From NCBI GenBank assembly GCA_964598425.1, contig CAZRBV010000005.1:1-64000 (forward strand): 64,000 nt of DNA, given 5' to 3'. The notes beneath the pieces were generated by a model. It did no database searches. It was not told the DNA's origin and worked only from the letters and a program-made list of their open reading frames with translations. Below, one piece after another: positions 18,202 through 46,080 of the stretch. Both the position numbers and the translations under genes were made by a program. The stretch is from an uncultured Isosphaeraceae bacterium (GTDB lineage: Bacteria; Planctomycetota; Phycisphaerae; Phycisphaerales; SM1A02). How positions within the stretch are numbered: position 1 is the first letter of the stretch; each line of letters opens with the position of its first letter.

Positions 18202-18223
18202 GAAGCAGCGAGGAGAAACACCT

Positions 18224-26192: not shown

Positions 26193-27803
26193 ATGAACAA
26201 CGCCATGACGCGTACCGCAACAGCAGCCTGTGTGATCACGCTGTGTTCTCTGGCCATCGAGACAGCCCATGCAGAAATGACTTGGGGGGGATGGCACCAT
26301 GGAGATGACCGGTTGGAGTTCTGGCTTGGGGATACCGAAGTCGGTCCTGTCGAATCCCTCTGGATCGCGCCGACAGATCGCATGCCGGGGCGGAATGTTC
26401 AGGTCTCGTTGGCCGCCGATGCAGCGAGCGGTACGCAGCACATGGCAGTGGTGTGGAGCGACGCGTCGGGCACGCCGCAATCGGCGAGGCTCATGCTTGA
26501 TGGAGTCGTGCCTGCCGGGTGGAACCCGCGAATGGTGTCGATGTCGTATCAGGGGATGGTGACTGAGGCAGAAACCGGTGTGATCGACCTGCCGGGCTTT
26601 GTCGCCAGGATGCTGATTACGCCGAGTGAGACGAACTACGCAAGGCGCACACTCTTTGAGGTGCAGGAGGAAGCGACGGAGCAGTCGGATCCCACAGAGT
26701 TCCTGCCTGGGGATACGGACAGCACCTTCACGGTTGATGCCAACGACATTCTTCAGGTCCTGACTCACTACGGCACCGATTGCGAAGGGATGATTCCGTG
26801 CCCTGGAGACGGGGATGCCAGCGGAGCGGTCAACATTGAGGATCTTCTCGCGGTCATTCGAAACTACGGAAGGGCTCTGCTCGCTGAAGACACCGCGCCC
26901 CGGCGTCTCTTGTTCTGGCAGCCCGTGGGCGGTTCGTGGCATGAAGAGGGCTTTCCCAATCACATCCATCCGCAGGTCTTTACGGATGAGGCAGGCTGGC
27001 AGGTGAACATCGATAAGCGAATCGGCCCGGTTGTAGACGAAATCGGAGCGGGGTCGTTTGACATGTGGTTTCATAACATTGCCGGATACTGGTATGACCA
27101 CGATCAGGTGTGGCCATCAGGCAATCTGCAATCGATGCTGTTCGAACAACTCGAGAAGGCGCGGCAGCAACGCCCCGGGCTCGTGCAGGATCTCCCCACG
27201 CTGGTCGAGTTTCTGCGACGAAACGACATCAACTACTACGCGTATCTCGGGATTCCTCGGTGCTGGGTCTCTCCCTGGGGAGTAGGCGGCTGGACGCCTC
27301 AGGAGGATCACGGAGACCCCGAAGCGATCAACCGGTTCTATGGTGAACTGTTGCAGCTTGGATTCAGTGGGATTGGGCACGATGCTGGGAAGCATGTTCC
27401 AGAAGACGCTCCATGGATGGCAGATGTCGTGCCCGAGCTTCATCGGCGCGGCACCGAGCTCTTCGTGGAAGCGATTCCAATGCGATCTCAGACACATCTT
27501 CTCGGCTTCAGTGTTGTGGCGGAACACCGCATGTGGGACCGCATGCCCGGCAACAATCCTGAAACGTATCTCACCGAAGAGGAAATCGTGGCCGCTGGCG
27601 GGCGGGCGATTCATATCATGACGTGGCCGCTTGACATGGCTCCTGGCGATGATGGCTACGATCCCGGGTTCGACTATACCCAGTGGCGGTGGGACACCGC
27701 CATGCAGTTGCTCTCGGAAGGCAAGACGGTTGCAATCGGACTTCGTGGCCTGCAGAACGCCGGATACCCGCTCGGCGATCTGGTCGCTGCTGCTCAGAAC
27801 TGA
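26193..27803 (+). CDS. Secreted protein with an internal dockerin-like repeat and a C-terminal ~350-aa domain of unknown function
   Basis: Signal peptide (TATAACVITLCSLAIETAHA). Dockerin-like DANDILQVLTHYG...GDGDASGAVNIEDLLAVIRNYG. The long minus-strand ORF 26157..27101 overlapping it has no such features. Confidence 0.55.
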   Translation: MNNAMTRTATAACVITLCSLAIETAHAEMTWGGWHHGDDRLEFWLGDTEVGPVESLWIAPTDRMPGRNVQVSLAADAASGTQHMAVVWSDASGTPQSARLMLDGVVPAGWNPRMVSMSYQGMVTEAETGVIDLPGFVARMLITPSETNYARRTLFEVQEEATEQSDPTEFLPGDTDSTFTVDANDILQVLTHYGTDCEGMIPCPGDGDASGAVNIEDLLAVIRNYGRALLAEDTAPRRLLFWQPVGGSWHEEGFPNHIHPQVFTDEAGWQVNIDKRIGPVVDEIGAGSFDMWFHNIAGYWYDHDQVWPSGNLQSMLFEQLEKARQQRPGLVQDLPTLVEFLRRNDINYYAYLGIPRCWVSPWGVGGWTPQEDHGDPEAINRFYGELLQLGFSGIGHDAGKHVPEDAPWMADVVPELHRRGTELFVEAIPMRSQTHLLGFSVVAEHRMWDRMPGNNPETYLTEEEIVAAGGRAIHIMTWPLDMAPGDDGYDPGFDYTQWRWDTAMQLLSEGKTVAIGLRGLQNAGYPLGDLVAAAQN

Positions 27804-27819: not shown

Positions 27820-29232
27820 TCAAGCCAGCTGCTCAGAACCTGCGGCTGGTGCGGCGTCATCATCCCAATCCTCCTCGGGGAAGAGCGGGTCCCAGGATTC
27901 CTCGGGATCGGTCTGGTACATCGCGCCAAAGAACATGGCGATGAATCCTGCAATGCGCATGCCGTAGAAGGCACCAATGAAGGCCATGAGTCCATTCCAC
28001 AAGAAGAGCGCCGCTTCGCCGCGCGAAAAGGCGATGGTCTGTCCAAGTGCGCAACCGCATGGAATGATGATGAACGGCCGATGCAGCGCTGTCACAGTTC
28101 TTTCATCGAGGGCCCTGACGATAAGGCCCATAACGATGGCGTAAAACGGTAGCGCAAGCCACGGGAAGTCGTGGGCGATGTGACCGATGATGCCAGGACC
28201 GACGTTGAATACATCGCCGGATCCCTTTCGCCGAATGGCGCCATCGTGCACCATGTCCTTGGCCAATGGATAGGGTTTGTTGGGCCAGATGACGCGGGGG
28301 ATCGGCATGGCGACCAGAAACTTCACCTGGTGCATGAAAACATACGGATAGGCATGACCGTACGTTTCGATTGCCCACATGCTGAGGGGGCCGGCATTCT
28401 GCCCGGTGAGCACTGCCGTCAGGCCCGAAGTGATGTCCTCGACATTGAGCTCGGTGAGCCGTGTGATTCGGTCGCCAATACTCTGATGCTCGTATGCACC
28501 ACCACTTCGCCGCGTCGCCGTGTAGGCGGTCAGCACAAACAGACCGATCAGCCCGAAGATGGTGACCTTGCGAATGAGCGTGTGCAGCGGAAACCGCCGC
28601 CAGTATGCGTAGTAAATCGCCCAGCCGAATCCCAGTGGAACACCGATCGTGCCTCGGCGGCCGAAGGATTGATACGACACCGCCGTCAGGGCGAGCAGGA
28701 GAATGCCGAACGCCAGCCCGATGTAGATCGGGTTGCGGAAGTCTCTCGACCAGGCCCATGCCGCCGTCGCAGCGCACGCCGTCAGGACGCCAGCGCCTGC
28801 TTGCGAGGCGAGGATGCCGATGAGCGGGATCCACATCAGCACCATTTTCATAAACGCCCCGATGCCGAGCAGAAGCAGCGACAAGGCAAACCACCCACCG
28901 GCTGCCCCGTCCCAGTCTCCCTTTCCGATTCCGCGGACGTAACGCAGGACGCCCCAGTCGCGGGCGTATGACCACTCGAAAAGGATCAGGAACAGGGTCG
29001 CCATGAAGGCGAAGATCATCGGCGTGATCGTCTTGTCATCTGGCTCCAGATTGCCGTAAATGCTGAAGGCCAGGCCGAGAATGCTGCTGGTCAGCTGGAA
29101 GATTGTGAAACCAGCCAGGAACACCGTGTGAATGCTGAGCAGCTCAGCGCGGCGCCGAGCCGCCAGCTTGATAACCCGGACAACGATCCAGACGATGAGG
29201 CAGGCGAGATAGAGGGAAACGATGAATCGCAT
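27820..29232 (-). CDS. Polytopic inner-membrane protein (>=10 TM), possibly an oligosaccharide-repeat polymerase/ligase (Wzy/O-antigen-ligase-like)
   Basis: Hydrophobic segments run throughout, with a large loop near the C-terminal third and an acidic cytoplasmic tail (EEDWDDDAAPAAGSE). The function call is by architecture only. Confidence 0.4.
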   Translation of the reverse strand: MRFIVSLYLACLIVWIVVRVIKLAARRRAELLSIHTVFLAGFTIFQLTSSILGLAFSIYGNLEPDDKTITPMIFAFMATLFLILFEWSYARDWGVLRYVRGIGKGDWDGAAGGWFALSLLLLGIGAFMKMVLMWIPLIGILASQAGAGVLTACAATAAWAWSRDFRNPIYIGLAFGILLLALTAVSYQSFGRRGTIGVPLGFGWAIYYAYWRRFPLHTLIRKVTIFGLIGLFVLTAYTATRRSGGAYEHQSIGDRITRLTELNVEDITSGLTAVLTGQNAGPLSMWAIETYGHAYPYVFMHQVKFLVAMPIPRVIWPNKPYPLAKDMVHDGAIRRKGSGDVFNVGPGIIGHIAHDFPWLALPFYAIVMGLIVRALDERTVTALHRPFIIIPCGCALGQTIAFSRGEAALFLWNGLMAFIGAFYGMRIAGFIAMFFGAMYQTDPEESWDPLFPEEDWDDDAAPAAGSEQLA

Positions 29233-29291: not shown

Positions 29292-30560
29292 TCAGGGAAT
29301 GCGGCGTACGGCGAGAATTGTTCGATCGTCCTGCGGCGGCTGGCCATTTCGGAAGGTCTCGATGTCGCCTCGCAGCTCCTCCAGCGTCTCGACGATCGGC
29401 CGCGAGGGCTCATCCGCGAGCAGGTCCGCCAGTCTTTCGATTCCGTAAAAGCCCCCGTCCGCATCGAGTGCCTCGAAAATCCCATCGCTCGGAATGGCGA
29501 GGATGTCGCCCGGCTTCATGTCGATGCGAGTCGTGGCATCTGCATCAATCTGCTCCAACACACCCAGTGGGGGAACGTCTGCGTCGTACGTGACCACTTC
29601 GCCATCAGCGCGAACCAGCAACATCGGACCGTGTCCCGCCGCCAGCGAGTGCACGGCTCCGCCTGCGGCATCGAGTTGTCCAAACCAACCGGTGACGAAC
29701 TGCATCGGAGATGTGTCCTGCCACAGCTGGGTATTGAGCTCTGAGACCATGTCCAGAAGGGGGGCGTTCAGACGAACGGCCATACGAAGCATGGATCGCA
29801 CTTGCGTGACCGAAATGGCAGGGCCGATTCCGTGACCGGTTGCGTCTCCGACCATGAGCATCGCGCCGCCATCGATATCGATTGCATCGTAGGCATCGCC
29901 TCCGGTCGCATCGGCGGGCATACTCCATCCGTGGATTTCCCAGCCATCCAACTCTGGAAACGTGTTCGGGAAGGTTGCTGCCTGGATCTTTCTCGCGATG
30001 TCCAGATCATGTTGGAGCTTGACCAGTTCGAGTCGGTCTGCGAGGAGTCGTGACCGGCGCATCGCGACGGCCGATTGGGCAGCAAGTGCCGAAGCGATGT
30101 TTTCGCATTCTTCTCCGAATGGACCGGCTCGTCTATTGAGAACCTGCGCGACGCCCACGAGCTCACCGACGTCGGTGGCGACCAGTGGAATCGTCAGCAG
30201 ATTACGGGTTCGGTATCCCGTTTTCTCGTCGACACCTCGATAGAAACGGTCATCGGCATAGGCATCCGAAATGTTGATGATCTCTCGTGACTCGCCCGCC
30301 GCCCCGGCGATTCCCGTTCCAAGGGGGACGCGAATATCATCTAACGACTCCATCAACACGCCGTCTGGACCGTGTCCTGCAACTGCAACGAGTTCGTTGT
30401 CCTTCGCGCGAAACTCAAACACGGTAGCCCGTTCAGCTTCAAGAATGTCACGAAGGCAGTCTGCGACGCGGCAAATGACAGCCTGCGGTTCGTCGGTGCT
30501 GCCAAGTACGCGGCTGACTTCGAGAATGCAATCGATTTGTTCGCGTGAGATATCCGGCAT
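29292..30560 (-). CDS. GAF-domain / PP2C-family (SpoIIE/RsbU-type) serine phosphatase
   Basis: N-terminal GAF-like region (ILEVSRVLGSTDEPQAVICRVADCLRDIL...ATVFEF). C-terminal PP2C motifs GGDAYDAIDIDGG, MVGDATGHGIGPA, DGIFEA. Confidence 0.8.
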   Translation of the reverse strand: MPDISREQIDCILEVSRVLGSTDEPQAVICRVADCLRDILEAERATVFEFRAKDNELVAVAGHGPDGVLMESLDDIRVPLGTGIAGAAGESREIINISDAYADDRFYRGVDEKTGYRTRNLLTIPLVATDVGELVGVAQVLNRRAGPFGEECENIASALAAQSAVAMRRSRLLADRLELVKLQHDLDIARKIQAATFPNTFPELDGWEIHGWSMPADATGGDAYDAIDIDGGAMLMVGDATGHGIGPAISVTQVRSMLRMAVRLNAPLLDMVSELNTQLWQDTSPMQFVTGWFGQLDAAGGAVHSLAAGHGPMLLVRADGEVVTYDADVPPLGVLEQIDADATTRIDMKPGDILAIPSDGIFEALDADGGFYGIERLADLLADEPSRPIVETLEELRGDIETFRNGQPPQDDRTILAVRRIP

Positions 30561-30580
30561 GTGGAGTCCTGTTGGAGAGA

Positions 30581-33250
30581 CTACTTCTCTTGCAGCCGCA
30601 GCGCGTGTGGCATCGGGTCCGACGCATCCCGTACGACCTCGGCAAACCTTCTGGTAATCGCTGTGGTGCCGCCAATCGCCTCGAGATCCTCCAGAGACGC
30701 TCGTGCGGCCGCTCGGTTTCCTTCTCGGATTGCGGCGGCAAGCGCTGCCCGCCGTGTGACTACCTCGGCCGATTCCGTCGGGATCGAGAGGGTCCAGGAA
30801 TCAACGATGGCTCTTTTTCCAACGACCTGAATCGGCCCGACCTCGATGAAGGGCAGGTCGGCATCGGCTGCCAATACCTGCGTTCGACCATCCAGCAGGA
30901 TGGACGTTCCCAATTGTTTGTTGGCCGACTCCAACCGAGCGGCGAGATTGGCTACGTCGCCGATGACGGTGTAGTCATTCAGCCGTGGTGGGGCGCCGCA
31001 GTCTCCAACCAGCGCCTCGCCAGTGGCGATACCGATCCGCAAGCCGAGTTGAGGTTGATTCAGCGCTGGATCTGCGTTGATCGTAGTCATGAACTCCTGA
31101 CACTCAATGGCCGCGTGGCAGGCGAGCGCTGCCTGATCCGACTGGATTCCAAAGGCCGACCAGAAGGCAAGGAATCCGTCGCCGAGAAACTTGTTGAGAT
31201 AGGCATCACGTGATGTGACGCGATCGGTCAGGCCAGCCATACAGCGATTGAGAAGTGCGACTGTTTGCTCGCTTCCGAGCCGCTCGCTGATCTGGGTGAA
31301 TCCGGCGAGGTCCCCGAACATGACGCACACCTCGCGGCGAACACCGAGCATGCTGAGCGCATTCGGGTCTCGGGCCAGCTCGTCAACGAGGGCCTCTGGG
31401 ACGCGGGCCCGGAACTGTCGTGTGACTCGCCGTTTCTCTTGCTGCACCAGCATCGCTCGAGATCCGGTTCCGGTTGCCCACGAGAGCGTCATGGCGACAA
31501 TGGGAGCAGCAGCGGGAAGCACAACCGATTCGTACGAGAACATCGCGATCAGGCTGATGACCCACAGTGCCAGGAGGCCACACGATGCCGCTGTAGCGGG
31601 CCACGGCCCGAGTGAGGCGACAAGGATTGCAATGAGAAGGCCGAGTCCTGCCGAGGCGGCCGGTGACCACCACCGCGGCCCTTCACGCAAGGAGCGATCT
31701 TGAAGCACCATGTCTGCGAGGGCCGCATGAACCATGACGCCCGGCGTTCGCGGACCGGCAGCCGTTGGGATGAAGTCAGCGACCGTACCGGTTGCCGTCC
31801 AGCCGACGAAAACGAGTCGATCCTGCACGGCATCGCGAAGCGTTTGTTCAACCTGCGTGATGCGTTCGGTCGCCTCTCGTGCCGCTTCGCCCGCGATGCG
31901 CCAATCAAGCATGCGGGTGAGAAGATCACGCTCCGCCTCATCGAGGTGCTCGAGCTCAGACTCAAGGGCCTTACGGCTGCGGATGTCGCCGAGGGTGAAG
32001 TCGACCTCATCGGCAACTTCCCGCTGCAGTTCTTCCGAGAGCCAGTCATCGGCCTCCATTGCCGGGTCCATGCGAATGCCCCGGATCAGATCACGCGAGG
32101 CTTCCGCTTGGAGGTCTCTGGCTTGCTCACGTGTCTGCCGAGCTCTGGCGAGAAGAACAATCTCGCCAATGGAGATGTGCCCGGTAAACCTCGCATCATC
32201 TTCGAGCGTTCGATGAAGATCTGGCCAGTCCATTCCGTGGCTGCTTCGAGGCCAGCACAGGGTGATTGCGTCGCCGCTCAGCGGAAGCCGTACATCTCCG
32301 ATGGCAACCGCATCATCTTCAACGACGTACGGAGTGTCTGCTCCGAGAAAACGCCGAACCGCCGCTATGCCGAGGGGAGGTACGCGCTCTCCGTGACCGA
32401 TGGGCTGAGTAGGAAGCAAGTGACGCACTCCGCCGTCGGAACTTCGGCGGGCGATGTTGACATACCCGGATCCTCCCGCTCCCTCACCAAACTCCGGCAG
32501 CGGGAAACGGTCACTGGGGGATGGTTGGTGTGCCGGCCCGCCGGAGATTCCTCCTGGAAGGGCCGACCGACCCTGGTGTTGCCGAAGTGCCGCGTCAATG
32601 AGCGGCTCCATCGCGCCGCGCTCGTTGCCAGCGAGTTCAAGTACACGCTGTTGATCCGCTGTCGTTGTGGCGAGGTCGAAGATGGCGCGGCGGCGAAGGA
32701 GATGCAGCGTATCGGTCGCGGCATCCGGACCACCAATCCGGGGATCACGCGAGAGGTCGCTCCGCATGCCATCAAGCGTCTGCTCAAGTATCTCTGGCGA
32801 TCCGCCGGCGGCCGTCCATCTCGCCTCAAGCTCATCGGGCATGAGCAGCACGCCCAGTACGATGTTGTGATCGATGGCGTCGGCCAGGAGTTGATCGTGA
32901 TTGGTCTGGATAGGTGGAGGCCCGGGATGCCACGTGGCCTGTTGGGGATCGGCCAGATCAAGATCAACGGCGATCGTTCGAGCTCCGGCCCGTCTGAGTT
33001 CATGCAGCGCACCGGCGAGGTCGGCTCGCGGCCAGGGCCACCGTCCCAATCGTTCCAGCGCCCGGTCATCAATGTCGGCCATGACAATCTCGGGCGACAT
33101 CGGCTCTGTGTCCCGGGGAAGATGTTGCTGTTCGAGATCCAGCAACCGCTCGTTCCAGCCGTGAAATCCTCCGGTCACATCGATCAAAACGACGATGAGG
33201 GTCGCCGTCACCGCTGAGAGAAGAACGCTGCTACTGGTGTTGCCCATCAC
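30581..33250 (-). CDS. CHASE2 sensor domain / class III adenylate-guanylate cyclase
   Basis: N-terminal TM plus periplasmic CHASE2-like region (RLGRWPWPRADLAGAL...), then three TM segments. The cyclase domain has VCVMFGDLAGFTQISE, NKFLGDGFLAFW, LRIGIATGEALVGDCGAPPRLNDYTVIGDVANLAARLE. Confidence 0.85.
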   Translation of the reverse strand: MMGNTSSSVLLSAVTATLIVVLIDVTGGFHGWNERLLDLEQQHLPRDTEPMSPEIVMADIDDRALERLGRWPWPRADLAGALHELRRAGARTIAVDLDLADPQQATWHPGPPPIQTNHDQLLADAIDHNIVLGVLLMPDELEARWTAAGGSPEILEQTLDGMRSDLSRDPRIGGPDAATDTLHLLRRRAIFDLATTTADQQRVLELAGNERGAMEPLIDAALRQHQGRSALPGGISGGPAHQPSPSDRFPLPEFGEGAGGSGYVNIARRSSDGGVRHLLPTQPIGHGERVPPLGIAAVRRFLGADTPYVVEDDAVAIGDVRLPLSGDAITLCWPRSSHGMDWPDLHRTLEDDARFTGHISIGEIVLLARARQTREQARDLQAEASRDLIRGIRMDPAMEADDWLSEELQREVADEVDFTLGDIRSRKALESELEHLDEAERDLLTRMLDWRIAGEAAREATERITQVEQTLRDAVQDRLVFVGWTATGTVADFIPTAAGPRTPGVMVHAALADMVLQDRSLREGPRWWSPAASAGLGLLIAILVASLGPWPATAASCGLLALWVISLIAMFSYESVVLPAAAPIVAMTLSWATGTGSRAMLVQQEKRRVTRQFRARVPEALVDELARDPNALSMLGVRREVCVMFGDLAGFTQISERLGSEQTVALLNRCMAGLTDRVTSRDAYLNKFLGDGFLAFWSAFGIQSDQAALACHAAIECQEFMTTINADPALNQPQLGLRIGIATGEALVGDCGAPPRLNDYTVIGDVANLAARLESANKQLGTSILLDGRTQVLAADADLPFIEVGPIQVVGKRAIVDSWTLSIPTESAEVVTRRAALAAAIREGNRAAARASLEDLEAIGGTTAITRRFAEVVRDASDPMPHALRLQEK

Positions 33251-33321
33251 GCTGCTGGCAGCGTAGCAAGGATGGCCCCAGTGGGCTCCCCTGCGGGAAA
33301 GAGGGCTGGCTCAGGCGCGAG

Positions 33322-34845
33322 TCACGGACACCACGCGCAGTCGCCGCCATCGGGCAGCTCGTAGGTGCCATCGGCTGGACCGTACTGCAGGGCCTGCCCG
33401 TACGGAGTGAGCCCTGGCTGATAGCCCGGCGGCTGGTACTCGTTATAGAGCACCGCGTTCATTGCGTTGGCGAATGCCTCTCGGCAGACTTCAATCTTGT
33501 TGCCATCGCCATCGAAGGTTGTGACGCAGAACTCGTTGACGATGGTCATCATCGTTCGAAGATCGGTGTCACCGGTGAATGGTTGCCCGGTCCATTGCCC
33601 GTCACCGTAGTCGAGGATCGCGGCATAGGTTCCTGGAATAGGGCTGTCCCCATTGGGCAGATCAACCCCAAATGGAATGGTCATGTACTCGTGGCCGTCC
33701 TGACCCTCGTGGATGTACTCGATGCGAGATGAATCGTGAAAACCTGTTGCGTTGAAGAGTCCGGACTCAAATCTGGCCGCGACGCGGTGGCCCGCAGGAT
33801 TGTATGGGTCAAGCGGCCCGACATCCTTGAGTTTCATATCCCAGTAGAGCGCCGTTGCAACCGATCCCATGTCCTCGGGAAGCACAACACCGTTGGGAGG
33901 GAAGTACCACGAGAAGCCGTCCTGAATAAAGGGGTCGCCGAATTCCTCTTCAAGGATCTCGTCGGCGATGGCTTGCTGCTGATCGGCCAGCAAGACGCGG
34001 ACCGACTGATTGATGGGATTGGCGTTGGAAACAGCCTGCGTCGTCTGGTCAGGGGCGTCTTGTTTATCCTGTGACTCTGTGGCTTGCAGCGGGGGTGGTC
34101 CAGATGCTTCCATGGCGCCAGCAACAGCAGGATCTGGCGTCTTCTGAGTCGAGATGGCATCGCCCGACATCAGGTGGGAGACCTTGCTGCCGTAATAGCG
34201 CATGGCGATTGCGTTCATCGCATTGGTGCGGGCGCCGAAGACCTGCGTGCCGTGCAAGGCGCTATGCCCAACGGCCATGCCAGTGCCCCGCACAGCCAGG
34301 GCACCCGAAGGCGTGAGCACCGAGAAGTCGTTTGTCAGGCCGACTTGTCCGACTTCAATGTCTGCGCGTCCGCGATTGACCTGCACCATGGTCTTGAGCG
34401 TGTCGCCGGCGTGCGTGATCTGGGGAAGCGTGACACGCGATCCGCTGTCAACAAACACATGCGAGTTGATGCCGACCCGAAGCATCATCCATGAATGCAG
34501 CCCGGTGCGAATCATCGCACCTGGTTCAAGGATGTCGTCCTTGGCGGCTTTCTTCCACTTCGCCTTGTCTCCCGATCGCCACTGAACCTTTCCAGTGTGC
34601 TCCATGATGACCGCGCGAAGAATGCGCGTCTCATTGTCCGGCAGCGCCTCGGCAGCCTTGAGAGCAATCTTCTTGAGCGCCGCAAGGCGAGCTTGAATGG
34701 CGTCCTTGCTGTTTGTGGCGACGGGTTGGAGACTCTGTCCGACTGTCGTCGTTTCAACGGGAGCTTCCTGCGCGCCGACCCACAAGCCGAGTGTCAGCGA
34801 TGCAGCCATTGCTGTGGTCCACGTGATTGAGCGTGTGATCGTCAT
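33322..34845 (-). CDS. Secreted FecR-domain protein with a Cys-containing C-terminal domain
   Basis: Signal peptide (MAASLTLGLWVGAQEAP). FecR-like core (KVQWRSGDKAKWKKAAKDDILEPGAMIRTGLHSWMMLRVGINSHVFVDSGSRVTL...ADIEV). Its start overlaps the upstream stop (ATGA 34842-34845). Confidence 0.6.
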   Translation of the reverse strand: MTITRSITWTTAMAASLTLGLWVGAQEAPVETTTVGQSLQPVATNSKDAIQARLAALKKIALKAAEALPDNETRILRAVIMEHTGKVQWRSGDKAKWKKAAKDDILEPGAMIRTGLHSWMMLRVGINSHVFVDSGSRVTLPQITHAGDTLKTMVQVNRGRADIEVGQVGLTNDFSVLTPSGALAVRGTGMAVGHSALHGTQVFGARTNAMNAIAMRYYGSKVSHLMSGDAISTQKTPDPAVAGAMEASGPPPLQATESQDKQDAPDQTTQAVSNANPINQSVRVLLADQQQAIADEILEEEFGDPFIQDGFSWYFPPNGVVLPEDMGSVATALYWDMKLKDVGPLDPYNPAGHRVAARFESGLFNATGFHDSSRIEYIHEGQDGHEYMTIPFGVDLPNGDSPIPGTYAAILDYGDGQWTGQPFTGDTDLRTMMTIVNEFCVTTFDGDGNKIEVCREAFANAMNAVLYNEYQPPGYQPGLTPYGQALQYGPADGTYELPDGGDCAWCP

Positions 34846-35501
34846 GGTGTCGAGTCACCTTCCTCGGCCGTTGCCGTCGCTCCGGAGTCCTGCTCCGAGG
34901 GCGGCGGCTCAGCCGGCTGGGCGGGGCTGGGGGCGGAGCCCTCAGCCGGTAGGGATGGCACCTGGGCGTTTCGTGCCGTCCAGGCGCGATCGATCAGGAG
35001 ACGCTGTTCGGCAGCACCGAGCAGCGCAATGTATTCGGCCCCACTCAGGGCCTCATGCTCAGTTATGCCGGGTATGAGCCCCATGTGAACCAGTTCTCGG
35101 GTGCAATATCTCGGAGTCGCCCCAAAGAGCTGCATTGATAGACCACCCCGCACATCCAGTATGTGGCACAGGCAGACCGCAACAAAGCCCATTTCAACCG
35201 ATTCATTGGGGGGGAGGGCCTCCGAATCAGCCTGTATCCACCCTTGCTGGATCGCGGCCTGCCATCTTGCTGCCCATGAATCTCCTGCAGGCACCTCTGA
35301 GAGCAGAAGAAGCCCGTGCACGGCATCGTCATTGGTGGTAACGGCCTGCGTTTCCAGTGCGTCCCAGAAATCCAGTGAGTCATCGGCAGTCGGAAACTGG
35401 GCGGCGGCCGGGGAGTCAACCGTTGTGCGGTCCATGAGTCCGCATCCGGCGAGGCCCAGCATGGTTGTCAACATGGCTCCAGTCATGAATTCAGAATGCA
35501 T
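34842..35501 (-). CDS. Lipoprotein, function unknown
   Basis: Lipobox TTMLGLAGCGLMD after the internal start MHSEFMTGAM. The track ORF extends to 35588, overlapping the upstream gene. Confidence 0.45.
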   Translation of the reverse strand: MHSEFMTGAMLTTMLGLAGCGLMDRTTVDSPAAAQFPTADDSLDFWDALETQAVTTNDDAVHGLLLLSEVPAGDSWAARWQAAIQQGWIQADSEALPPNESVEMGFVAVCLCHILDVRGGLSMQLFGATPRYCTRELVHMGLIPGITEHEALSGAEYIALLGAAEQRLLIDRAWTARNAQVPSLPAEGSAPSPAQPAEPPPSEQDSGATATAEEGDSTP

Positions 35502-36993
35502 AGGTGACACCTCCATAGAGGAACTGCCGCACCTGATCGATCGGTTCCGGGTTGCCCCCATTGGGGATGAAAAGGCCGTATCGGACATTGAAACTCACAT
35601 CGCTTGTGACGCTCCAGTCCATGCGGAGATCGCACTCCCAGCCCACGAATCGGCTTGGTGTAGACGGGGCAGATATCGGGGCGCTTGCAGTTGTCTTCCC
35701 GAATGCGAAGAAATCGACGCCGACGCGAAGGTCGTCTGGCCGCCTGGGGTCAATCGGGATTGCTGTACTTGCCCCAACCCTCGCCATGAGCAGATTCGTC
35801 ATGCTCGGCGCCAGGGCGAGGCCTGTGTTGATGTAGCCGAGGCTGTTGAATGCGTTGTCGGGAGATCCGGGCCAGTTGCCGCCGATGGTTGCCGAGCTTG
35901 AAAGACGATCCCCGTCACCCGTGCCAAAGCCAAGCGTGGCTTCGATTCGCGTGCTCTGATGATCATTCAGCAGATACATCATGTTCAGAACGCCTGCCCA
36001 GGCATCGATATCTTCATCGGTCTGAAGCGGTCCACTGACCGCGACAATTGGTGTTGACTTTCCGGTACCTGTTTCGTGGCACAGCTCCAGGGTGTACAGG
36101 AACTGATTGCCGATCGATCCGTCGGTGCCGAATGAGAGGTACTGAGAGTCGTACTGAAACTCCGTAGCGCCGAAGAAGGGAAGTACCACACTGTCATTGT
36201 TGTGATCGGTCTGAGCGAAGTATGAGACGTACGGCGCGAACTCAGGGGACACCTCGTACTGACCGCGGACTCCCCAGACGTGTCGATTTGTGTCGGTGTC
36301 GTAGTTGGGGCGGCTCACATCGAAGTCGTACAGGCCACTTCGAGCTGAAACACCTACGACACCCTCGATGGAAATCGCTTCCCACTCGGCCTGGATCTTG
36401 GCTCCATAGATGTCGTTGCTCCAGACGAGCCCGGAGTTCCAACTGATGAACTGTCGACCTGCCCGAACCGTAAGCCCAAGCGGGCCTGCGGCGCCCTCGT
36501 TGGCTCGCTGCCAGTCGGCCAGATCGAACTGATACCAGTACCGGTTTCCGATCGGATCAAGCCAACCTTCGTTCGCATTGCCGCTGTTGTAATAGTCGCT
36601 GTACAGAAAGCGGAGATTGCCGAAGAAACGGTGCCCGCCAGCGATGACCGTCTGGAGATACACGTTGGCTTCATACTGCCGCAGACCGTACGGTTCGAAA
36701 TTGGCGTCATCCAACTTCGCCCACCCGAAGCGAAGTGAGGCGCCATAGTCGAGGGTCAGCTGCTCTCCGAGCGTCTGGCCTCGATGATCGGCGAGTCGCC
36801 GGTCGATTTCTTCGTCGAGCATCTGCTGCTCGATTCGATTGAGCAGAGCCGATTCGCGGTTCTGTGCGGTGGCTGGCACCGACCATGAGCCGATCAGCAG
36901 CGCCACGATGGCAGTCTGGGCTGCCGAACCTGAGAATATGACTGGTCGTTCTGGCACGTGGTCTCCTCTCGTGGTGAGGGGGGAGAGCCCCAT
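35491..36993 (-). CDS. Putative outer-membrane beta-barrel protein
   Basis: Signal peptide (TAIVALLIGSWSVPATAQ). Alternating aromatic/hydrophilic strand-like pattern throughout, rich in Y/W/G/N/D, with a C-terminal ...YGGVTYAF (terminal Phe). Confidence 0.5.
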   Translation of the reverse strand: MGLSPLTTRGDHVPERPVIFSGSAAQTAIVALLIGSWSVPATAQNRESALLNRIEQQMLDEEIDRRLADHRGQTLGEQLTLDYGASLRFGWAKLDDANFEPYGLRQYEANVYLQTVIAGGHRFFGNLRFLYSDYYNSGNANEGWLDPIGNRYWYQFDLADWQRANEGAAGPLGLTVRAGRQFISWNSGLVWSNDIYGAKIQAEWEAISIEGVVGVSARSGLYDFDVSRPNYDTDTNRHVWGVRGQYEVSPEFAPYVSYFAQTDHNNDSVVLPFFGATEFQYDSQYLSFGTDGSIGNQFLYTLELCHETGTGKSTPIVAVSGPLQTDEDIDAWAGVLNMMYLLNDHQSTRIEATLGFGTGDGDRLSSSATIGGNWPGSPDNAFNSLGYINTGLALAPSMTNLLMARVGASTAIPIDPRRPDDLRVGVDFFAFGKTTASAPISAPSTPSRFVGWECDLRMDWSVTSDVSFNVRYGLFIPNGGNPEPIDQVRQFLYGGVTYAF

Positions 36994-37104
36994 GTGGAGG
37001 CAGACCCTGGGGGGAGCATTCCACCCCTACAGGGTCGCCGGGGAGTCTAACCAGTCTGTGGAATGACGTGGCACGCGATCGGTTTCCATGCGACCATGTA
37101 CAGC

Positions 37105-37845
37105 ATGAGACTGATCGTGACCGGAATCGGAGATGCATTCAGCGCCCTGCACTACGGATCCAGCGGCATCATTGATGGTGGCTGCGGTCTGGTGGCCATC
37201 GACTGCCCCGGTGCGGTGCTTGCGATGTACCGATCTGCGGCAGCGAGAAGCGGAGTCGAGGTGACATTTGAGCACGTCGATGACATCATTCTCACCCACC
37301 TGCATGGCGACCACAGCAATGGGCTGGAGACAATTGGTTTCGCACGACGCTACGCGGCGAGCCAGATCATCCGCCCGAGATTGCACGCGCTTCCTGAGGT
37401 TCTGGATCGCGTGTGGGAGAAGCTCGCGCCAGCCATGGACGGGGCAGCTCAGGGAGGCGAGCCGAGCACACTCGAGGACTACTTCGATCCGAGGCCGCTC
37501 GATCCCGAAGGCGCGGTGCAAATCGGAGGGATGGATGTGCGATGCCGCCGAACGCAGCACTCCATACCGACGGCCGGGCTTCTATTGAGAGCCGCAACCG
37601 GCACGCTGGGCTGGAGTGGCGACACGCAGTTTGAACAGGCCCATATCGACTGGCTGGCCGAGGCAGATTGCATTGTGCACGAGTGCGGAGGGGGCGATAC
37701 GCATACGAAGTGGGAGGAACTTGATGCCCTCCCAGCCGAGATCAAGTCTCGGATCCGTCTCATTCATCGGCCCGACTCTGCCGTGGATCCGGGGGGCGTT
37801 ATGAGGCCCCTCACCGAGGGCGAGGTGATCGACATCCACGGGTGA
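37105..37845 (+). CDS. MBL-fold metallo-hydrolase
   Basis: MRLIVTGIGDAFS... and the THLHGDH (HxHxDH) zinc motif. The gene ends 13 nt before the gcvP start. Confidence 0.7.
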   Translation: MRLIVTGIGDAFSALHYGSSGIIDGGCGLVAIDCPGAVLAMYRSAAARSGVEVTFEHVDDIILTHLHGDHSNGLETIGFARRYAASQIIRPRLHALPEVLDRVWEKLAPAMDGAAQGGEPSTLEDYFDPRPLDPEGAVQIGGMDVRCRRTQHSIPTAGLLLRAATGTLGWSGDTQFEQAHIDWLAEADCIVHECGGGDTHTKWEELDALPAEIKSRIRLIHRPDSAVDPGGVMRPLTEGEVIDIHG

Positions 37846-37858
37846 ACATGGCTGGGGT

Positions 37859-40813
37859 TTGACTACAATGGGTCGCTTTCAGGATGAACCAGCGACTCAT
37901 CGGGAGAACCCAATGGAGCAGTGTATGGCCGAGGAATTGAACCACCACCAACGCGACGCTGCAGGCCGCGGTGACGATGCTGTGTTTCTCGATCGTCACG
38001 TCGGCCCCGACGCGCGGGACCTGGCCACGATGCTGGAGGCCATCGGGTGCGCGTCTCTCGATGAGGTGATGTATGGCGCCATGCCCGATGACATCCGCAC
38101 GGCACCCGAACCATCCGCGCCTCCGTGGTCTGAAACCGAAGCGTTGAGCATGATCCGTGCCTGCGCCGATCGCAATCAGGTCGTCCGCTCGGCGATCGGA
38201 ATGGGCTATCACGACACGATCGTCCCGCCGGTGATTCAACGATCGATTCTTGAGAATCCAAATTGGTATACGCAGTACACGCCGTATCAGAGTGAGATCT
38301 CACAAGGTCGGCTGGAGGCCCTGCTGAACTACCAGACGATGGTCGCCGATCTCACCGGCCTGCCTGTTGCAAACGCATCGCTACTCGATGAGTCGACCGC
38401 TGCAGCAGAGGCAATGCTGATGTGCCGGCAGATAGCGGGCAGCAATCGATCGAAGTTCATTGTTTCGAGTACTTGCCATACACAGACTTTGGCAGTGCTG
38501 CGCGGACGCGCTGCGCCGCTCGGCATTGAGCTGCTGGAGGTGGATCTCTCGGCAGCGCTTCCCAGCTTCGACGATGCCTTCGGTGTCCTGGTGCAGTCCC
38601 CCGACACATTCGGCATCGTGCATGACTGGCGGGCACTGACGGCCGCGGCGGCCCAAGCTGGCGCCGTCCCGGTGATGTCTGCAGACCCACTCTCCCTCAC
38701 GCTGATGAGGCCCCCTGGTGAGATGGGGTTCGACATCGCGGTTGGATCAATGCAGCGGTTTGGGGTTCCGATGGGTTTCGGCGGCCCCCACGCAGCCTAT
38801 ATGGCAGTGCGGCAGCCGTACGTCCGCAAGATGCCGGGGCGACTGATCGGTGTCTCACGCGACGCCGTCGGAACGATGGCGCTTCGCATGGCGATTCAGA
38901 CTCGGGAACAGCACATTCGCCGAGATCGGGCGACAAGCAATATCTGCACCGCTCAGGTGCTGCTCGCCATCATGGCGGGGATGTACGCGGTATGGCACGG
39001 CCCCTCGGGGCTCCGTCGGATCGCCGAACGTGTGCGTACGCACACCGGGCGTTTGGCCTCCGGGCTTGAAGGGTGTGGCATATCGATCGAACAGGGGACT
39101 CGGTTCGACACGGTCACAGTTCACGCCAGCAGCGACGCAGAGGCCGATGGCATGGTGCAGCGGGCGCTTGATTCCGGATTCAATATCCGTCGGTACACGA
39201 ACCAGCCATCGATCGGTGTCTCGCTGGATGAGACGACGGTAGATCAGGACGTCGAGGCGATTTTGACTGCCATTGCACCCGGCGCGGTTCCTGGAACATG
39301 TGAACCTCTTGAAGAAGGCATGTCTCGCTCCAGCGGGTATCTGATCGATGAAGTCTTCAATTCACACCATAGTGAGACTGAGATGCTGCGCTACATCACG
39401 AGACTGCAGTCGCGTGATCTGTCGCTGGCGCACTCAATGATCCCGCTTGGGTCCTGCACCATGAAACTCAATGCAACCTCAGAGTTGATCCCGGTCAGTT
39501 GGCCTGAGTTTGCCCGCATGCACCCCTTCGCACCCCGCTCGCAGTGGTCTGGCTACGAGGAATTGATCAGCGGGCTTGAGCAGCGACTGCTGGATCTCAC
39601 AGGCTTTGACGGTGTTTCGCTGCAGCCCAACGCGGGTTCGCAGGGCGAGTATGCGGGGCTGCTGACAATCAGCGCCTGGCATCGTTCCCGCGGAGACGAT
39701 GACCGCCGTGTGTGCCTGATTCCCATGTCGGCGCACGGAACGAACCCCGCAAGCGCTGTGATGGCCGGGTTTGAAGTTGTTCCGGTGTCGTGCGATGACG
39801 GTGATATCTCACTTGTCGATCTTGAAGCGAAGATAGAGGTCCACCGTGATCGACTCGGCGCCATCATGATCACCTACCCATCGACACACGGTGTGTTTGA
39901 GGGGACGATTCGCCACATTTGCGAACGTGTGCATGAGGCTGGCGGGCAGGTCTATCTGGACGGGGCCAATCTCAATGCGATGCTTGGGCACGCAAGGCCG
40001 GGCGATATCGGTGCGGATGTGTGCCATCTGAATCTCCACAAGACGTTTGCCATTCCGCATGGCGGCGGGGGCCCTGGCGTCGGGCCAATTGTCGCGGCGG
40101 CGCATTTGTGCCCATTCCTGCCGGGCCATCCGGTCGTGTCGCCGTCCAGGTCGGAGGGTCAGGCGATCGAACCGGTCTCTGGGGCACCGTGGGGCAGTGC
40201 CAGCATCCTTCCGGTGTCATGGATGTACATCATGATGATGGGGGACATTGGTCTGGCCCACGCCTCTTCGGTGGCCGTGCTTGCGGCAAACTACATGGCA
40301 AAGCGACTGGAGTCGCACTACGACGTGTTGTTCCGCAACGAGGTTGGTTTCTGCGCTCATGAATTCATCATCGACCTTCGTCCGTTTGATCGCAGTGCCG
40401 GCATCAAGCCCGACGATGTCGCGAAGCGGCTCATGGATTATGGATTCCACGCGCCGACCATGTCGTGGCCTGTCGCGGGGACGCTCATGATTGAGCCGAC
40501 AGAGAGCGAATCGCTCGCCGAACTTGATCGATACTGTGACGCCTTGATCGCGATCCGCGGCGAGATCGCGGCGATTGAATCCGGTGAAGCCGACCGAGAA
40601 GACAATGTTCTACGGAACGCGCCGCACTCGCTTCAGGTGATGACGGCCGATACATGGTCGCACCCGTACAGCAGATCCCAGGCAGCGTGGCCTTTGTCCT
40701 GGCTGCGGCAGCGCAAGTTCTGGCCGCCGGTAGCGCGAGTAGACAATCCGTGGGGTGATCGCAATCTGGCATGCACGTGTGCCGGAATGGCAGAGTACGA
40801 GTCGACTGAGTGA
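37859..40813 (+). CDS. gcvP: Glycine dehydrogenase (decarboxylating), glycine cleavage system P protein, single-chain form
   Basis: Collinear with GcvP along its whole length: FLDRHVGPD, NPNWYTQYTPYQSEISQGRLEALLNYQTM, the PLP-Lys region NLHKTFAIPHGGGGPGVGPI, and the C-terminal ACTCAG...E. The true start may be ATG 37913 or 37925. Confidence 0.92.
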   Translation: MTTMGRFQDEPATHRENPMEQCMAEELNHHQRDAAGRGDDAVFLDRHVGPDARDLATMLEAIGCASLDEVMYGAMPDDIRTAPEPSAPPWSETEALSMIRACADRNQVVRSAIGMGYHDTIVPPVIQRSILENPNWYTQYTPYQSEISQGRLEALLNYQTMVADLTGLPVANASLLDESTAAAEAMLMCRQIAGSNRSKFIVSSTCHTQTLAVLRGRAAPLGIELLEVDLSAALPSFDDAFGVLVQSPDTFGIVHDWRALTAAAAQAGAVPVMSADPLSLTLMRPPGEMGFDIAVGSMQRFGVPMGFGGPHAAYMAVRQPYVRKMPGRLIGVSRDAVGTMALRMAIQTREQHIRRDRATSNICTAQVLLAIMAGMYAVWHGPSGLRRIAERVRTHTGRLASGLEGCGISIEQGTRFDTVTVHASSDAEADGMVQRALDSGFNIRRYTNQPSIGVSLDETTVDQDVEAILTAIAPGAVPGTCEPLEEGMSRSSGYLIDEVFNSHHSETEMLRYITRLQSRDLSLAHSMIPLGSCTMKLNATSELIPVSWPEFARMHPFAPRSQWSGYEELISGLEQRLLDLTGFDGVSLQPNAGSQGEYAGLLTISAWHRSRGDDDRRVCLIPMSAHGTNPASAVMAGFEVVPVSCDDGDISLVDLEAKIEVHRDRLGAIMITYPSTHGVFEGTIRHICERVHEAGGQVYLDGANLNAMLGHARPGDIGADVCHLNLHKTFAIPHGGGGPGVGPIVAAAHLCPFLPGHPVVSPSRSEGQAIEPVSGAPWGSASILPVSWMYIMMMGDIGLAHASSVAVLAANYMAKRLESHYDVLFRNEVGFCAHEFIIDLRPFDRSAGIKPDDVAKRLMDYGFHAPTMSWPVAGTLMIEPTESESLAELDRYCDALIAIRGEIAAIESGEADREDNVLRNAPHSLQVMTADTWSHPYSRSQAAWPLSWLRQRKFWPPVARVDNPWGDRNLACTCAGMAEYESTE

Positions 40814-44499: not shown

Positions 44500-46080
44500 T
44501 CACTCGTCTGGGGAGCGGTGCACCATGGAGTCGAGCATCGTGCCAATGAGCGCCGTGGTTTCACCGGTTGATCCCTGCGTGTCACCTACGACCATGACAC
44601 GCGGCGTGATTTCGATGTTGCCCTCACCGATGATCTGAAGCAGTTCCAGCAGCGCGGCGTTCTGCTTGCCGATTTCCATCGCGAGTTTGCGGAACTGCTC
44701 TGCCTGCGCTTCCGCCTTGATGCGAATGGCCTCGGCTTCAGCGCTTGCTTCGATGAGACGCTTCTCCTTGGCTTGCTCGGCGATTTTCACGCCGTACGTG
44801 GCAGTTGCCAGGTTGGACTCCTCGTCGGCTTCCTGCTGCGTTCGGCTCAGTGCCTTTTGCTGCTCGGCAGCTCGTTGCTGTTCTTGGAACGTCATCTGTT
44901 CCTGCAGCGCGATTTCTCGATCGGTCTGTGTCTTGAGTAGCTCTCCCAGAGACGCCTCGTCGCCAATCTGGCCGATCCGGACGGCATTGACCGACACGCC
45001 GACCTTGCCCATGGCTTCGCGGATCGTGCCGGTGCTTGCGGCCTCCTGTTGGGAGCGCTGCTGCACGTAGTCGAGTGCTTTGACGTTCTCCGCGTTGTTG
45101 CGGAAGATCGCCCGAACCACCGAGGCGAGATACTGCTGCAACTTCGAGTCATCGCCACCGAATTCCGCGACAACCTGTGCGGCATCCAGAGGTCTGATCT
45201 GAAACTCGACACGAACATCGACGGGAAAGGTGAAACCATCAGACGTGCGGACCTCGATCTCGCGACCATCTGAGCCCTGCACGGCCTCTGCAGTGATGCC
45301 GTATCGGATGATCTGCTGCTCTGTTGAGATCATCGTGACCTCATAGGCCTTGCTGTTCAGATAGATTTTGTTCGGCAGCAGCGGATCTCGCCAGATCCCC
45401 CGTTGACCACGATTGACGATGGCGGCGCTGCCGTCCTCTGCGGAGTCAGCGGCGTCGCCGACGTTGGACTTGACGATGCCAACGGTTGCCTTCGGAATAT
45501 TTGTGGCGTCGGTGAGTTCGATGTCAAAGAGTCTCGTGTTGAGTCGATAATTGCCCGGCTTCAGGACTGAAGCCTGGGGGCCGCGATTGCCGGCACCGGC
45601 GCCGAGAAAGTGCTCGGCGAGAAGCATCTTGCCGGGTTCGTCCCACTCTGCTGCAAAGGCTTGCCCGGTTGGCAGAGGCTGTCCGTCGAGCGCGGTAATC
45701 AGCCCAACCTGATCACTGCCGACCTGCACGATCGGTACAACCTCGATGTCATAGAGCCCGGGCCACAACCAGAAGTGCCAGCCCGGGCCGAGGACACGTG
45801 CTTGCGGTCCTTTCTGGCCGTCGGTTGCGATGATCGTTCCGCCCGGAAGCTCTGGCCCATAGTGTTTGATGACGACGCCGACTTCGTCTTCAGAGACATG
45901 TCGTACTGAGCTGAACAACACGAACAGGAACAGCACGAGGAGCGCCCCGACCGACCCGGCGATCTTGACTCCGGGACTGGAAGACGACATGGCCCATACA
46001 AAGACAGCAATTGCAGCGACGATACCGATGAGCAACAGCAACATGGCCATGTGGATTCTCCTCCTGTGAGGCGTCCGCAA
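44500..46080 (-). CDS. SPFH/band-7 family protein, flotillin-like, with C-terminal coiled coil
   Basis: N-terminal TM, then an SPFH core (VRHVSEDEVGVVIKHYGPEL...), then an EA-rich coiled coil (QEQQRAAEQQKALSRTQQEADEE...AEAEAIRIKAEAQAEQFRKLA). The likely start is ATG 46050 (MAMLLLLIG). Confidence 0.7.
   Translation of the reverse strand: MRTPHRRRIHMAMLLLLIGIVAAIAVFVWAMSSSSPGVKIAGSVGALLVLFLFVLFSSVRHVSEDEVGVVIKHYGPELPGGTIIATDGQKGPQARVLGPGWHFWLWPGLYDIEVVPIVQVGSDQVGLITALDGQPLPTGQAFAAEWDEPGKMLLAEHFLGAGAGNRGPQASVLKPGNYRLNTRLFDIELTDATNIPKATVGIVKSNVGDAADSAEDGSAAIVNRGQRGIWRDPLLPNKIYLNSKAYEVTMISTEQQIIRYGITAEAVQGSDGREIEVRTSDGFTFPVDVRVEFQIRPLDAAQVVAEFGGDDSKLQQYLASVVRAIFRNNAENVKALDYVQQRSQQEAASTGTIREAMGKVGVSVNAVRIGQIGDEASLGELLKTQTDREIALQEQMTFQEQQRAAEQQKALSRTQQEADEESNLATATYGVKIAEQAKEKRLIEASAEAEAIRIKAEAQAEQFRKLAMEIGKQNAALLELLQIIGEGNIEITPRVMVVGDTQGSTGETTALIGTMLDSMVHRSPDE

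Follow-up and report, generated by a model that had tools for sequence, protein, structure and literature searches.

How does a signal reach CHASE2 sensors? For CHASE2 neither a ligand nor a mode of input is known (PMC5192318; no later paper among those surveyed reports one), and the closest described systems come from other bacteria. In S. meliloti the outer-membrane (OM) barrel NsrA is required for signalling via the CHASE2 cyclases CyaK, CyaD1 and CyaD2 (PMC7529298, PMC13001267), and the FecR-domain protein SMc02177, itself among the targets of that cyclic AMP (cAMP) pathway, was dispensable for plant-signal perception (PMC5498481). In the Campylobacterota the genes for a CHASE2 cyclase, a cAMP phosphodiesterase, a FecR-domain OM protein and a TPR protein cluster, and one pathway was proposed for them from the clustering alone (Mo et al. 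2022, PMC9239204). Burkholderia has a LysM-FecR protein paired with a CHASE2 kinase (PMC5192318). The present analysis concerns six genes between 29292 and 37845 of a 64,000-nucleotide (nt) stretch of contig CAZRBV010000005.1, which we call the window and to whose whole length all coordinates refer. In our reading, to which we give a probability of roughly 0.6, these genes are a Phycisphaerae-specific envelope-to-cytoplasm cyclic-nucleotide signalling cassette.

On the minus strand, in the order in which they would be transcribed, lie genes for an AlgE-like OM barrel (35491..36993; Pfam PF13372 and AlphaFold2 (AF2) fold), a lipoprotein of SLH-like fold (34842..35501; lipobox, AF2 and Foldseek), a secreted FecR-domain protein (33322..34845; Pfam FecR), a CHASE2 class III adenylate cyclase (30581..33250; Pfam CHASE2 and Guanylate_cyc) and a GAF protein with a SpoIIE/RsbU-type PP2C phosphatase domain (29292..30560; Pfam GAF and SpoIIE). 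Divergent from these, on the plus strand, is a gene for an Apyc1-like phosphodiesterase of the metallo-beta-lactamase (MBL) fold (37063..37845; phmmer match to Apyc1, metal ligands). An earlier note on this DNA had described the five minus-strand genes as one operon, and its five domain calls all hold; each assigned Pfam domain of the operon scored above its curated cut-off. The phosphodiesterase gene, which that note did not list, is a sixth member of the cassette.

The S. meliloti NsrA-CyaD1/CyaD2/CyaK-Clr system resembles this cassette in that an OM barrel is needed by inner-membrane CHASE2 cyclases, a FecR-domain protein (SMc02177, which we take to be encoded next to cyaD1) is periplasmic, and the output is cAMP. 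The differences are considerable. NsrA is about 1200 amino acids (aa) long and apparently of a different type from the cassette barrel, and to our knowledge it is not in an operon with the cyclases; the reader is the CRP-type Clr, whereas that proposed for the cassette is the GAF-PP2C protein; and neither an SLH-like lipoprotein nor an Apyc1-like phosphodiesterase belongs to an S. meliloti cassette. The Campylobacterota cluster shares with ours the CHASE2 cyclase, the cAMP phosphodiesterase and the FecR-domain protein, but it has a TPR protein in place of the SLH-like lipoprotein, lacks a separate AlgE-type barrel and a GAF-PP2C protein, and has a phosphodiesterase whose type is not stated as Apyc1-like. 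The BiofilmReg operon (COG4254) of Burkholderia likewise has a secreted FecR protein with a wall-binding module beside a CHASE2 sensor, but that module is LysM and not SLH-like, the output is a histidine kinase with a response regulator, and there is no OM barrel. In its proposed use of a FecR domain as a periplasmic relay the cassette is also like the Fec systems, and conceptually like both FecA-FecR-FecI and Rcs (RcsF-OMP-IgaA), where an OM protein or a lipoprotein-barrel pair passes envelope information to an inner-membrane transducer. Unlike Rcs, the cassette has no homologue of RcsF or IgaA, and its predicted output is a cyclic nucleotide; unlike Fec, it has a FecR-like protein without an anti-sigma domain and transmembrane (TM) helix, and lacks both a TonB-dependent receptor and an ECF sigma factor.

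The idea of an OM element acting with FecR, a CHASE2 cyclase and a phosphodiesterase is thus already in the literature, since S. meliloti NsrA and the Campylobacterota clusters precede it. The outward extension of the FecR/CHASE2 pairing to an OM barrel, proposed in the earlier note, had been partly anticipated in its OM element (PMC7529298, PMC9239204). What is new here is the obligatory pairing of an AlgE-type barrel with a lipoprotein of SLH fold, the natural fusions of that lipoprotein to FecR, a GAF-PP2C protein of cyclic mononucleotide (cNMP) type as putative local reader, and an Apyc1-type phosphodiesterase within the cassette. In the literature surveyed we found no description of such a writer/reader/eraser cassette in Planctomycetota.

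The evidence that joins these genes is in the first place their neighbourhood in other genomes. The survey of gene neighbourhoods that had been suggested for this locus was run over 80 Phycisphaerae genomes: a scan of species-representative genomes gave 80 loci with barrel identities of 32-90%. The window proteins served as tblastn queries against these loci, and a locus counted as testable only where its flank was long enough. The arrangement persists at protein identities of 32-50%. Barrel, lipoprotein, FecR and CHASE2 genes are linked nearly everywhere. The lipoprotein gene directly follows the barrel gene in 74/74 testable loci, a gene for the FecR N-terminal domain is present in 64/65, and the CHASE2 gene in 45/45, with a match to the cyclase domain in all of these except one (44/45), where the gene runs off the contig. 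The same gene set surrounds barrel homologues of just 32-38% identity, as the gene maps show, and anchoring on the most distant lipoprotein homologues also recovers the cassette, with the order of CHASE2 and FecR sometimes swapped. The outer members are looser. The phosphodiesterase gene lies next to the operon, in divergent orientation, in 53/66 testable loci, and a GAF-PP2C gene lies within 10 kb in 32 of 45, co-directional in 12 and convergent directly after the cyclase in 20. Four genes of the operon as first described are near-universal companions, but the fifth, for GAF-PP2C, is convergent in 20 of the 32 loci that have it and absent within 10 kb in 13 of the 45. The conserved synteny and the natural lipoprotein::FecR fusions described below argue that the genes form a functional unit, a four-gene core with two frequent accessories, associated beyond chance.

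The distribution of the cassette is wide within one lineage and takes in both marine and freshwater Phycisphaerae. We found 101 barrel homologues, and all the names given by their sources are Phycisphaerales or Phycisphaerae. In the window the gene after the phosphodiesterase gene encodes GcvP, glycine dehydrogenase (37859-40813, plus strand), and this gcvP neighbour is retained in relatives with roughly at least 50% barrel identity, so that the cassette has a stable chromosomal position there. One distant relative is arranged otherwise. At L001:3067-15002 (ENA contig ctg172043, 1.19 Mb) a rearranged cassette lies between hsdM/hsdS and hsdR of a type I restriction-modification locus, in the vicinity of a DDE transposase. 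Here the CHASE2 cyclase comes first, followed by an FG-GAP protein of 1243 aa, the barrel, a lipoprotein::FecR fusion of 666 aa and finally GAF-SpoIIE, and the phosphodiesterase gene is absent. The position of this copy, in a restriction locus and near a transposase, suggests that the module may move as one unit. Several distant relatives have large FG-GAP/VCBS-repeat proteins on the flanks of the cassette (L001:6182-9913, L004:9761-12028, L086:2214-7280 and L087:17355-18582).

The junctions within the window unit were read directly, and all are as the earlier note had them, as are the five minus-strand open reading frames (ORFs), listed at 35491-36993, 34842-35588, 33322-34845, 30581-33250 and 29292-30560. 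Read by base, the barrel gene ends in TAT GCA TTC TGA (Y-A-F-stop, at 35491), and the lipoprotein ATG at 35501 lies inside that end, giving an 11-nt overlap. The lipoprotein ORF could open at 35588, yet we take the real start to be the ATG at 35501, because the family consensus M-R-S-E aligns there with M-H-S-E of the window protein, and the lipobox comes next. The lipoprotein stop and the FecR start share the ATGA at 34842-34845, also read by base; a 71-nt gap precedes the CHASE2 gene, which starts with GTG at 33250 (an ATG lies at 33247); and a 20-nt gap containing AGGA precedes the ATG of the GAF-PP2C gene. Because the upstream gene at 37063-37845 is divergent, the operon would start at about 36993. 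The start of the barrel itself is more probably the GTG at 36957 than 36993, since the former matches the 488-aa database protein P0001 and gives an N-terminus that looks, by inspection, like a signal peptide. Simple promoter and terminator scans inside the unit gave nothing above background. The 11-nt overlap is kept in 74 of 79 loci, where the barrel frame reads YAF-stop and the lipoprotein frame M-[RHP]-S-[ED], and its conservation is strong evidence for translational coupling of barrel and lipoprotein, which would make them a pair synthesized stoichiometrically.

The identity of the barrel was a point on which the proposal could have failed, and the outcome favours it. The protein of 500 aa matches Pfam Alginate_exp (PF13372) at 35.3 bits against a cut-off of 25.2, over aa 222-477, and a precomputed PF13372 match exists for most of its homologues. 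An AF2 model built with 30 homologues (pLDDT 80, pTM 0.77) has 18 strands after a short N-terminal helix, and in a Foldseek search of the PDB with this model AlgE provided the top 17 matches, with E values near 1e-17 (best 2e-17) and TM scores of 0.56-0.73. A profile search against PDB sequences gave no match for the barrel, and the likeness to AlgE came from the fold search. With its signal-peptide-like N-terminus, judged by inspection, and its C-terminal YAF, the protein is, as modelled, an OM-type, AlgE-like beta-barrel.

The lipoprotein is the more unusual member of the pair. Its lipobox reads L-A-G-C, with a Cys that is present in at least 90% of 52 homologues and invariant in the 19 closer ones, in keeping with the periplasmic lipoprotein that had been proposed; what the proposal missed is an SLH-like fold. 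The AF2 model from the 52 homologues (pLDDT 88) is all-helical with a disordered, acidic, Pro-rich tail, and Foldseek puts 15 SLH structures on top. Two methods support the likeness, and the model has the three-motif helical fold of SLH proteins. Sequence searches gave a different answer: there is no Pfam or NCBIfam match to the lipoprotein, none of the 52 family members matches Pfam SLH (PF00395) at E<=1, and the profile search against PDB sequences returned no SLH match. Membership of the SLH family by sequence is accordingly rejected, and the lipoprotein is SLH-like by modelled fold and not a member of the family. The conserved blocks are a single, invariant T-R-E (134-136), N-D-D-A (57-60) and E-S (100-101), with any equivalence to the TRAE motif drawn by eye only.

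Does the lipoprotein work with the FecR protein? An exhaustive profile search gathered 1101 cluster representatives of the lipoprotein family, and of 252 members examined 33, including all 29 longer than 450 aa, are natural fusions in which a FecR domain of the cassette type directly follows the lipoprotein domain (custom hidden Markov model, E 1e-6 to 4e-32). The fusions are limited to some lineages. The 666-aa ORF of L001 has the same layout, with lipoprotein and FecR N-terminal domain both found inside it by tblastn. Such fusions argue that the two proteins act together and in the same compartment.

In the window the FecR domain scores 27.7 bits against a cut-off of 24, at aa 112-193 (about 34267-34512). 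The protein was said to be secreted, and a cytoplasmic location would have spoken against the whole scheme; its N-terminus is signal-peptide-like by inspection and it has no 19-residue hydrophobic segment, so that it is predicted to be exported and not cytoplasmic. No anti-sigma domain or TM helix was found in it, and genes for an ECF sigma factor or TonB-dependent receptor are not conserved in the window flanks or the annotated related loci. Only the N-terminal part of some 260 aa, which includes the FecR domain, is conserved, and whole lengths run from 293 to 2549 aa (L048:12053-19702, L054:5259-11264 and L045:12111-17357 are among the loci). In the window protein the C-terminal domain is compact, about 217 aa long and common to close relatives only. 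Six long orthologues have Pfam FecR at 25.1-35.6 bits, and no other Pfam domain was found in them. In the four inspected, the long extensions are 22-31% Ala, and these C-terminal regions, which look helical and of low complexity, are possibly fibrous or spacer-like. The FecR region also resembles, by a family model match, the model of the Leptospira surface adhesin Lsa33. We found no solved relatives of the FecR-like protein or of the CHASE2 domain.

The cyclase is an inner-membrane CHASE2 class III enzyme, as had been described, with CHASE2 topology and a complete catalytic set. The Pfam scores are 109 bits for CHASE2 and 62.8 bits for Guanylate_cyc. Hydropathy gives a TM segment at 9-27, a periplasmic region of about 500 aa (CHASE2, about 31664-33169), and then TM segments at 530-548, 553-571 and about 576-594, followed by the catalytic domain (about 30806-31333), which aligns best with Cya2 (2w01) and P. 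aeruginosa CyaB (3r5g). Both metal-binding Asp residues are there, together with Lys in NKFLGDG, Thr in NDYTVIG, and Asn and Arg in ANLAARL, and every one of 54 orthologues retains these six catalytic residues (D, K, D, T, N, R). The set is that seen in class IIIb adenylate cyclases, CyaB for instance, and its Lys/Thr pair, typical of adenylate cyclases, favours cAMP as the probable product. The CHASE2 domain occupies aa 18-544, or 527 residues against a 257-position Pfam model, and therefore has some 270 extra residues; by inspection, aa 370-490 or so are rich in charged residues and look helical.

The putative reader has a GAF domain of 50.7 bits (about 30063-30488) and a SpoIIE-type PP2C domain of 140 bits (about 29301-29873). 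A cNMP-binding GAF had been offered as a possibility, and by prediction this one falls in the cNMP-binding clade, its best solved relative being PDE2A GAF-B (E 8e-25), followed by CyaB2, PDE10A, PDE5 and PDE6. The segment FYRGVDxxTGxRTRN (FYRGVD-EK-TGYRTRN in the window) is almost identical to a PDE2A segment in which Y481, D485, T488 and T492 touch cGMP. The window protein retains the residues aligned with PDE2A I458, A459, D485, T488 and T492. Across 38 orthologues those aligned with A459, D485, T488 and T492 are kept in 37-38, that aligned with I458 is I or L, that aligned with S424 is essentially invariant, and that aligned with Y481 is Asn in most. A check of the binding residues thus finds most pocket-aligned positions kept and two base-contact-aligned positions changed, the latter taken up below; the nucleotide pocket is likely conserved.

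The phosphatase half is of the SpoIIE/RsbU/SiaA type, with SiaA, Rv1364c, SpoIIE and RssB as nearest solved relatives, and its metal-binding residues D239, D359, D411 and D412 are kept in 38/38 orthologues. What might it dephosphorylate? The many Ser/Thr kinases nearby that the earlier note suggested as possible targets come down to two, at 13-21 kb and outside the conserved module, and the idea finds no support. These two kinases (8236-10212 and 13456-15894, both plus strand) have unusual C-terminal domains, which resemble an FGE-sulfatase in the one and contain FG-GAP_2 repeats in the other.

The divergent gene at 37063-37845 encodes what we propose to be a class II MBL-fold, Apyc1-like cNMP phosphodiesterase, a candidate eraser of the signal. 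Its Pfam scores are 45.2 bits for Anti-Pycsar_Apyc1, which is below the cut-off of 50, and 44.6 bits for Lactamase_B_2, and in phmmer it matches Apyc1 structures over nearly its full length, with E values of 1.4e-20 (7u2r) and 1e-14. The HxHxDH motif with H206, H214 and D187 is kept in 61-62 of 62 orthologues. Hobbs et al. (PMC9117128) showed that Apyc1-like enzymes from bacteria hydrolyse a broad range of cyclic mononucleotides, with cAMP and cGMP preferred by the related YhfI, and they raised, but left open, a host role for such enzymes in cNMP signalling. With this phosphodiesterase beside the cyclase and the GAF-PP2C protein, the set of writer, reader and eraser would be complete.

From the gene order, domains, folds, catalytic residues, synteny, overlap and natural fusions we infer the locations of the proteins, their physical contacts, the direction of the signal (from the OM through FecR to CHASE2), the nucleotide, the stimulus and the output, along the following lines. 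The barrel and the SLH-like lipoprotein would form a complex at the outer membrane and cell wall. The FecR-domain protein would inform the periplasmic CHASE2 domain of the state of the envelope, be it the entry of a ligand through the pore or an altered wall or outer membrane, and CHASE2 would set the rate of cAMP synthesis. The cAMP may then bind the GAF domain and switch the PP2C phosphatase, which would dephosphorylate a phosphoprotein encoded elsewhere, and the Apyc1-like phosphodiesterase would reset the signal.

Other genes near the cassette in the window deserve brief mention. A 470-aa polytopic membrane protein with no Pfam match is encoded at 27820-29232 (minus strand), co-directional and 59 nt past the GAF-PP2C gene, and convergent to it at 26193-27803 (plus strand) is a gene for a 536-aa secreted-looking protein. 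We rejected both as cassette members, as they are kept solely in the three closest relatives (L006, L011 and L012). Two large SPFH/Band 7 domain proteins are encoded at 17963-19795 (plus strand) and 44500-46080 (minus strand), and ORFs without Pfam matches cluster at 16484-18201, beside the first of these.

Several points weigh against a signalling cassette of this design and should be set beside it. All the carriers identified are uncultured metagenome-assembled genomes. The GAF-PP2C gene (13/45) and the phosphodiesterase gene (13/66) are absent from the neighbourhood in about a quarter of the loci. The SLH likeness of the lipoprotein is at the level of fold only, and by inspection the arginines of TRAE are mostly replaced by acidic residues. 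In the GAF domain the residues aligned with PDE2A Asp439 and Glu512, which we take to be base-contact positions, are an invariant His and an invariant Gln in the 38 orthologues, and so the base preference, cAMP versus cGMP, is not readable from sequence. A rough tblastn with two approximate STAS sequences found no STAS/partner-switching substrate near the cassette in the window and 85 loci, and the annotated related loci list neither a STAS-type substrate nor a switch kinase. In S. meliloti, as noted at the outset, the FecR-domain neighbour of cyaD1 is dispensable for plant-signal perception (PMC5498481). Finally, barrel and lipoprotein might serve as output or structural partner and not as input.

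This last point leads to the first of the rivals, in which the barrel and lipoprotein are an AlgE-type polymer exporter, or an OM-wall tether, regulated in activity or assembly by the cAMP module in a manner analogous to the c-di-GMP control of alginate, Pel and cellulose secretion. We regard it as unlikely. The AlgE fold and Alginate_exp family of the barrel are what one would want of an exporter, as is its company, because AlgE works with the lipoprotein AlgK: in P. aeruginosa AlgE/AlgK, as here, an 18-strand Alginate_exp barrel is encoded beside an OM lipoprotein. The likeness to the alg system goes no further, for AlgK is a TPR protein and the alg operon has a synthase, a co-polymerase and modifying enzymes, of which the cassette has none; a polysaccharide synthase or AlgK-type TPR lipoprotein gene was found neither in the window flanks nor in the annotated related loci, and no glycosyltransferase, polymerase or co-polymerase is conserved across the approximately 80 neighbourhoods. 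The polytopic membrane protein that comes 59 nt after the operon also counts for this rival, but it is kept in the three closest relatives only. The SLH-like fold hints at wall attachment, but natural fusions join the lipoprotein to the FecR domain, which usually accompanies CHASE2 sensors, and so place it on the cyclase's input side.

Might a tether be the thing sensed? In this version the barrel and the SLH-fold lipoprotein would make up a split OmpM-like link between OM and wall in Planctomycetota, its state would be read by the FecR/CHASE2 cyclase, and the cassette would be a sensor of envelope integrity that works through cAMP. We hold this rather doubtful, though its interest is considerable: if true, it would be an envelope-integrity sensor functionally analogous to Rcs, with an SLH module of high divergence at its centre and within a Gracilicutes lineage. 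OmpM and Thermotogae Omp-alpha/Omp-beta likewise join an SLH module with an OM barrel, in one chain or in two proteins (bioRxiv 10.1101/2021.05.31.446380, PMC10628300), and Witwinowski et al. treat the latter as a split SLH-plus-porin system. The same authors report no known OM tether in Planctomycetes, and SLH and CsaB as practically absent from Gracilicutes. In OmpM the SLH domain can be recognised from its sequence, and its ligand is polyamine-modified peptidoglycan or a pyruvylated wall polymer, whereas the cassette lipoprotein matches by fold alone; the cassette also differs in that its module is lipid-anchored, its barrel is AlgE-like with 18 strands, and the pair sits within a signalling operon. 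As the TRAE arginines are mostly acidic here, any wall ligand of the lipoprotein would differ, and is probably not the pyruvylated polymer bound by classical SLH domains.

A third possibility, about as doubtful as the second, assigns the surface role to the FecR protein, as a sensor or adhesin whose long, variable C-terminus is exported or displayed by the barrel, with the lipoprotein as an assembly factor. The extensions described above, hypervariable (in proteins of 293-2549 aa), Ala-rich, helical and free of Pfam domains, are typical of surface fibrils, and the resemblance to the Lsa33 model points the same way. Yet the window protein ends in a compact domain of about 217 aa and has no fibril, the natural fusions would tether the FecR domain to a lipid anchor on the periplasmic side, and we know of no AlgE-type 18-strand barrel that secretes proteins.

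A Pycsar-like anti-phage system, composed of a pyrimidine cyclase and a cNMP-activated effector, is hardly credible and was rejected, for although the cyclase domain scores 87.8 bits against the PADLOC PycC model PDLC00734 and the gene next to the operon is similar to that of the anti-Pycsar enzyme Apyc1, the control cyclases CyaB (adenylate, 104.6 bits) and Cya2 (guanylate, 82 bits) match that model as strongly, which makes the match non-specific, there is no Pycsar-type effector and no PADLOC match to the other cassette proteins, the cassette has a stable chromosomal position beside gcvP in related genomes, and the Lys/Thr specificity pair fits adenylate cyclases.

What would the envelope-to-cytoplasm signalling cassette mean for the Phycisphaerae and for CHASE2 sensors at large? 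It offers a concrete architecture, and a widely conserved model, for how CHASE2 sensors receive input. Across phyla the FecR-domain partner of CHASE2 is joined to, or encoded beside, a wall-binding module, LysM in Burkholderia and the SLH-like lipoprotein in Phycisphaerae, where the FecR protein would additionally be coupled to a dedicated OM barrel. The cassette also supplies a chromosomal, non-phage context for Apyc1-like phosphodiesterases, and in Planctomycetota a compact set of predicted writer (cyclase), reader (GAF-PP2C) and eraser (phosphodiesterase). If the SLH-like lipoprotein does bind the wall, it would bear on how the outer membrane is attached in Planctomycetes.

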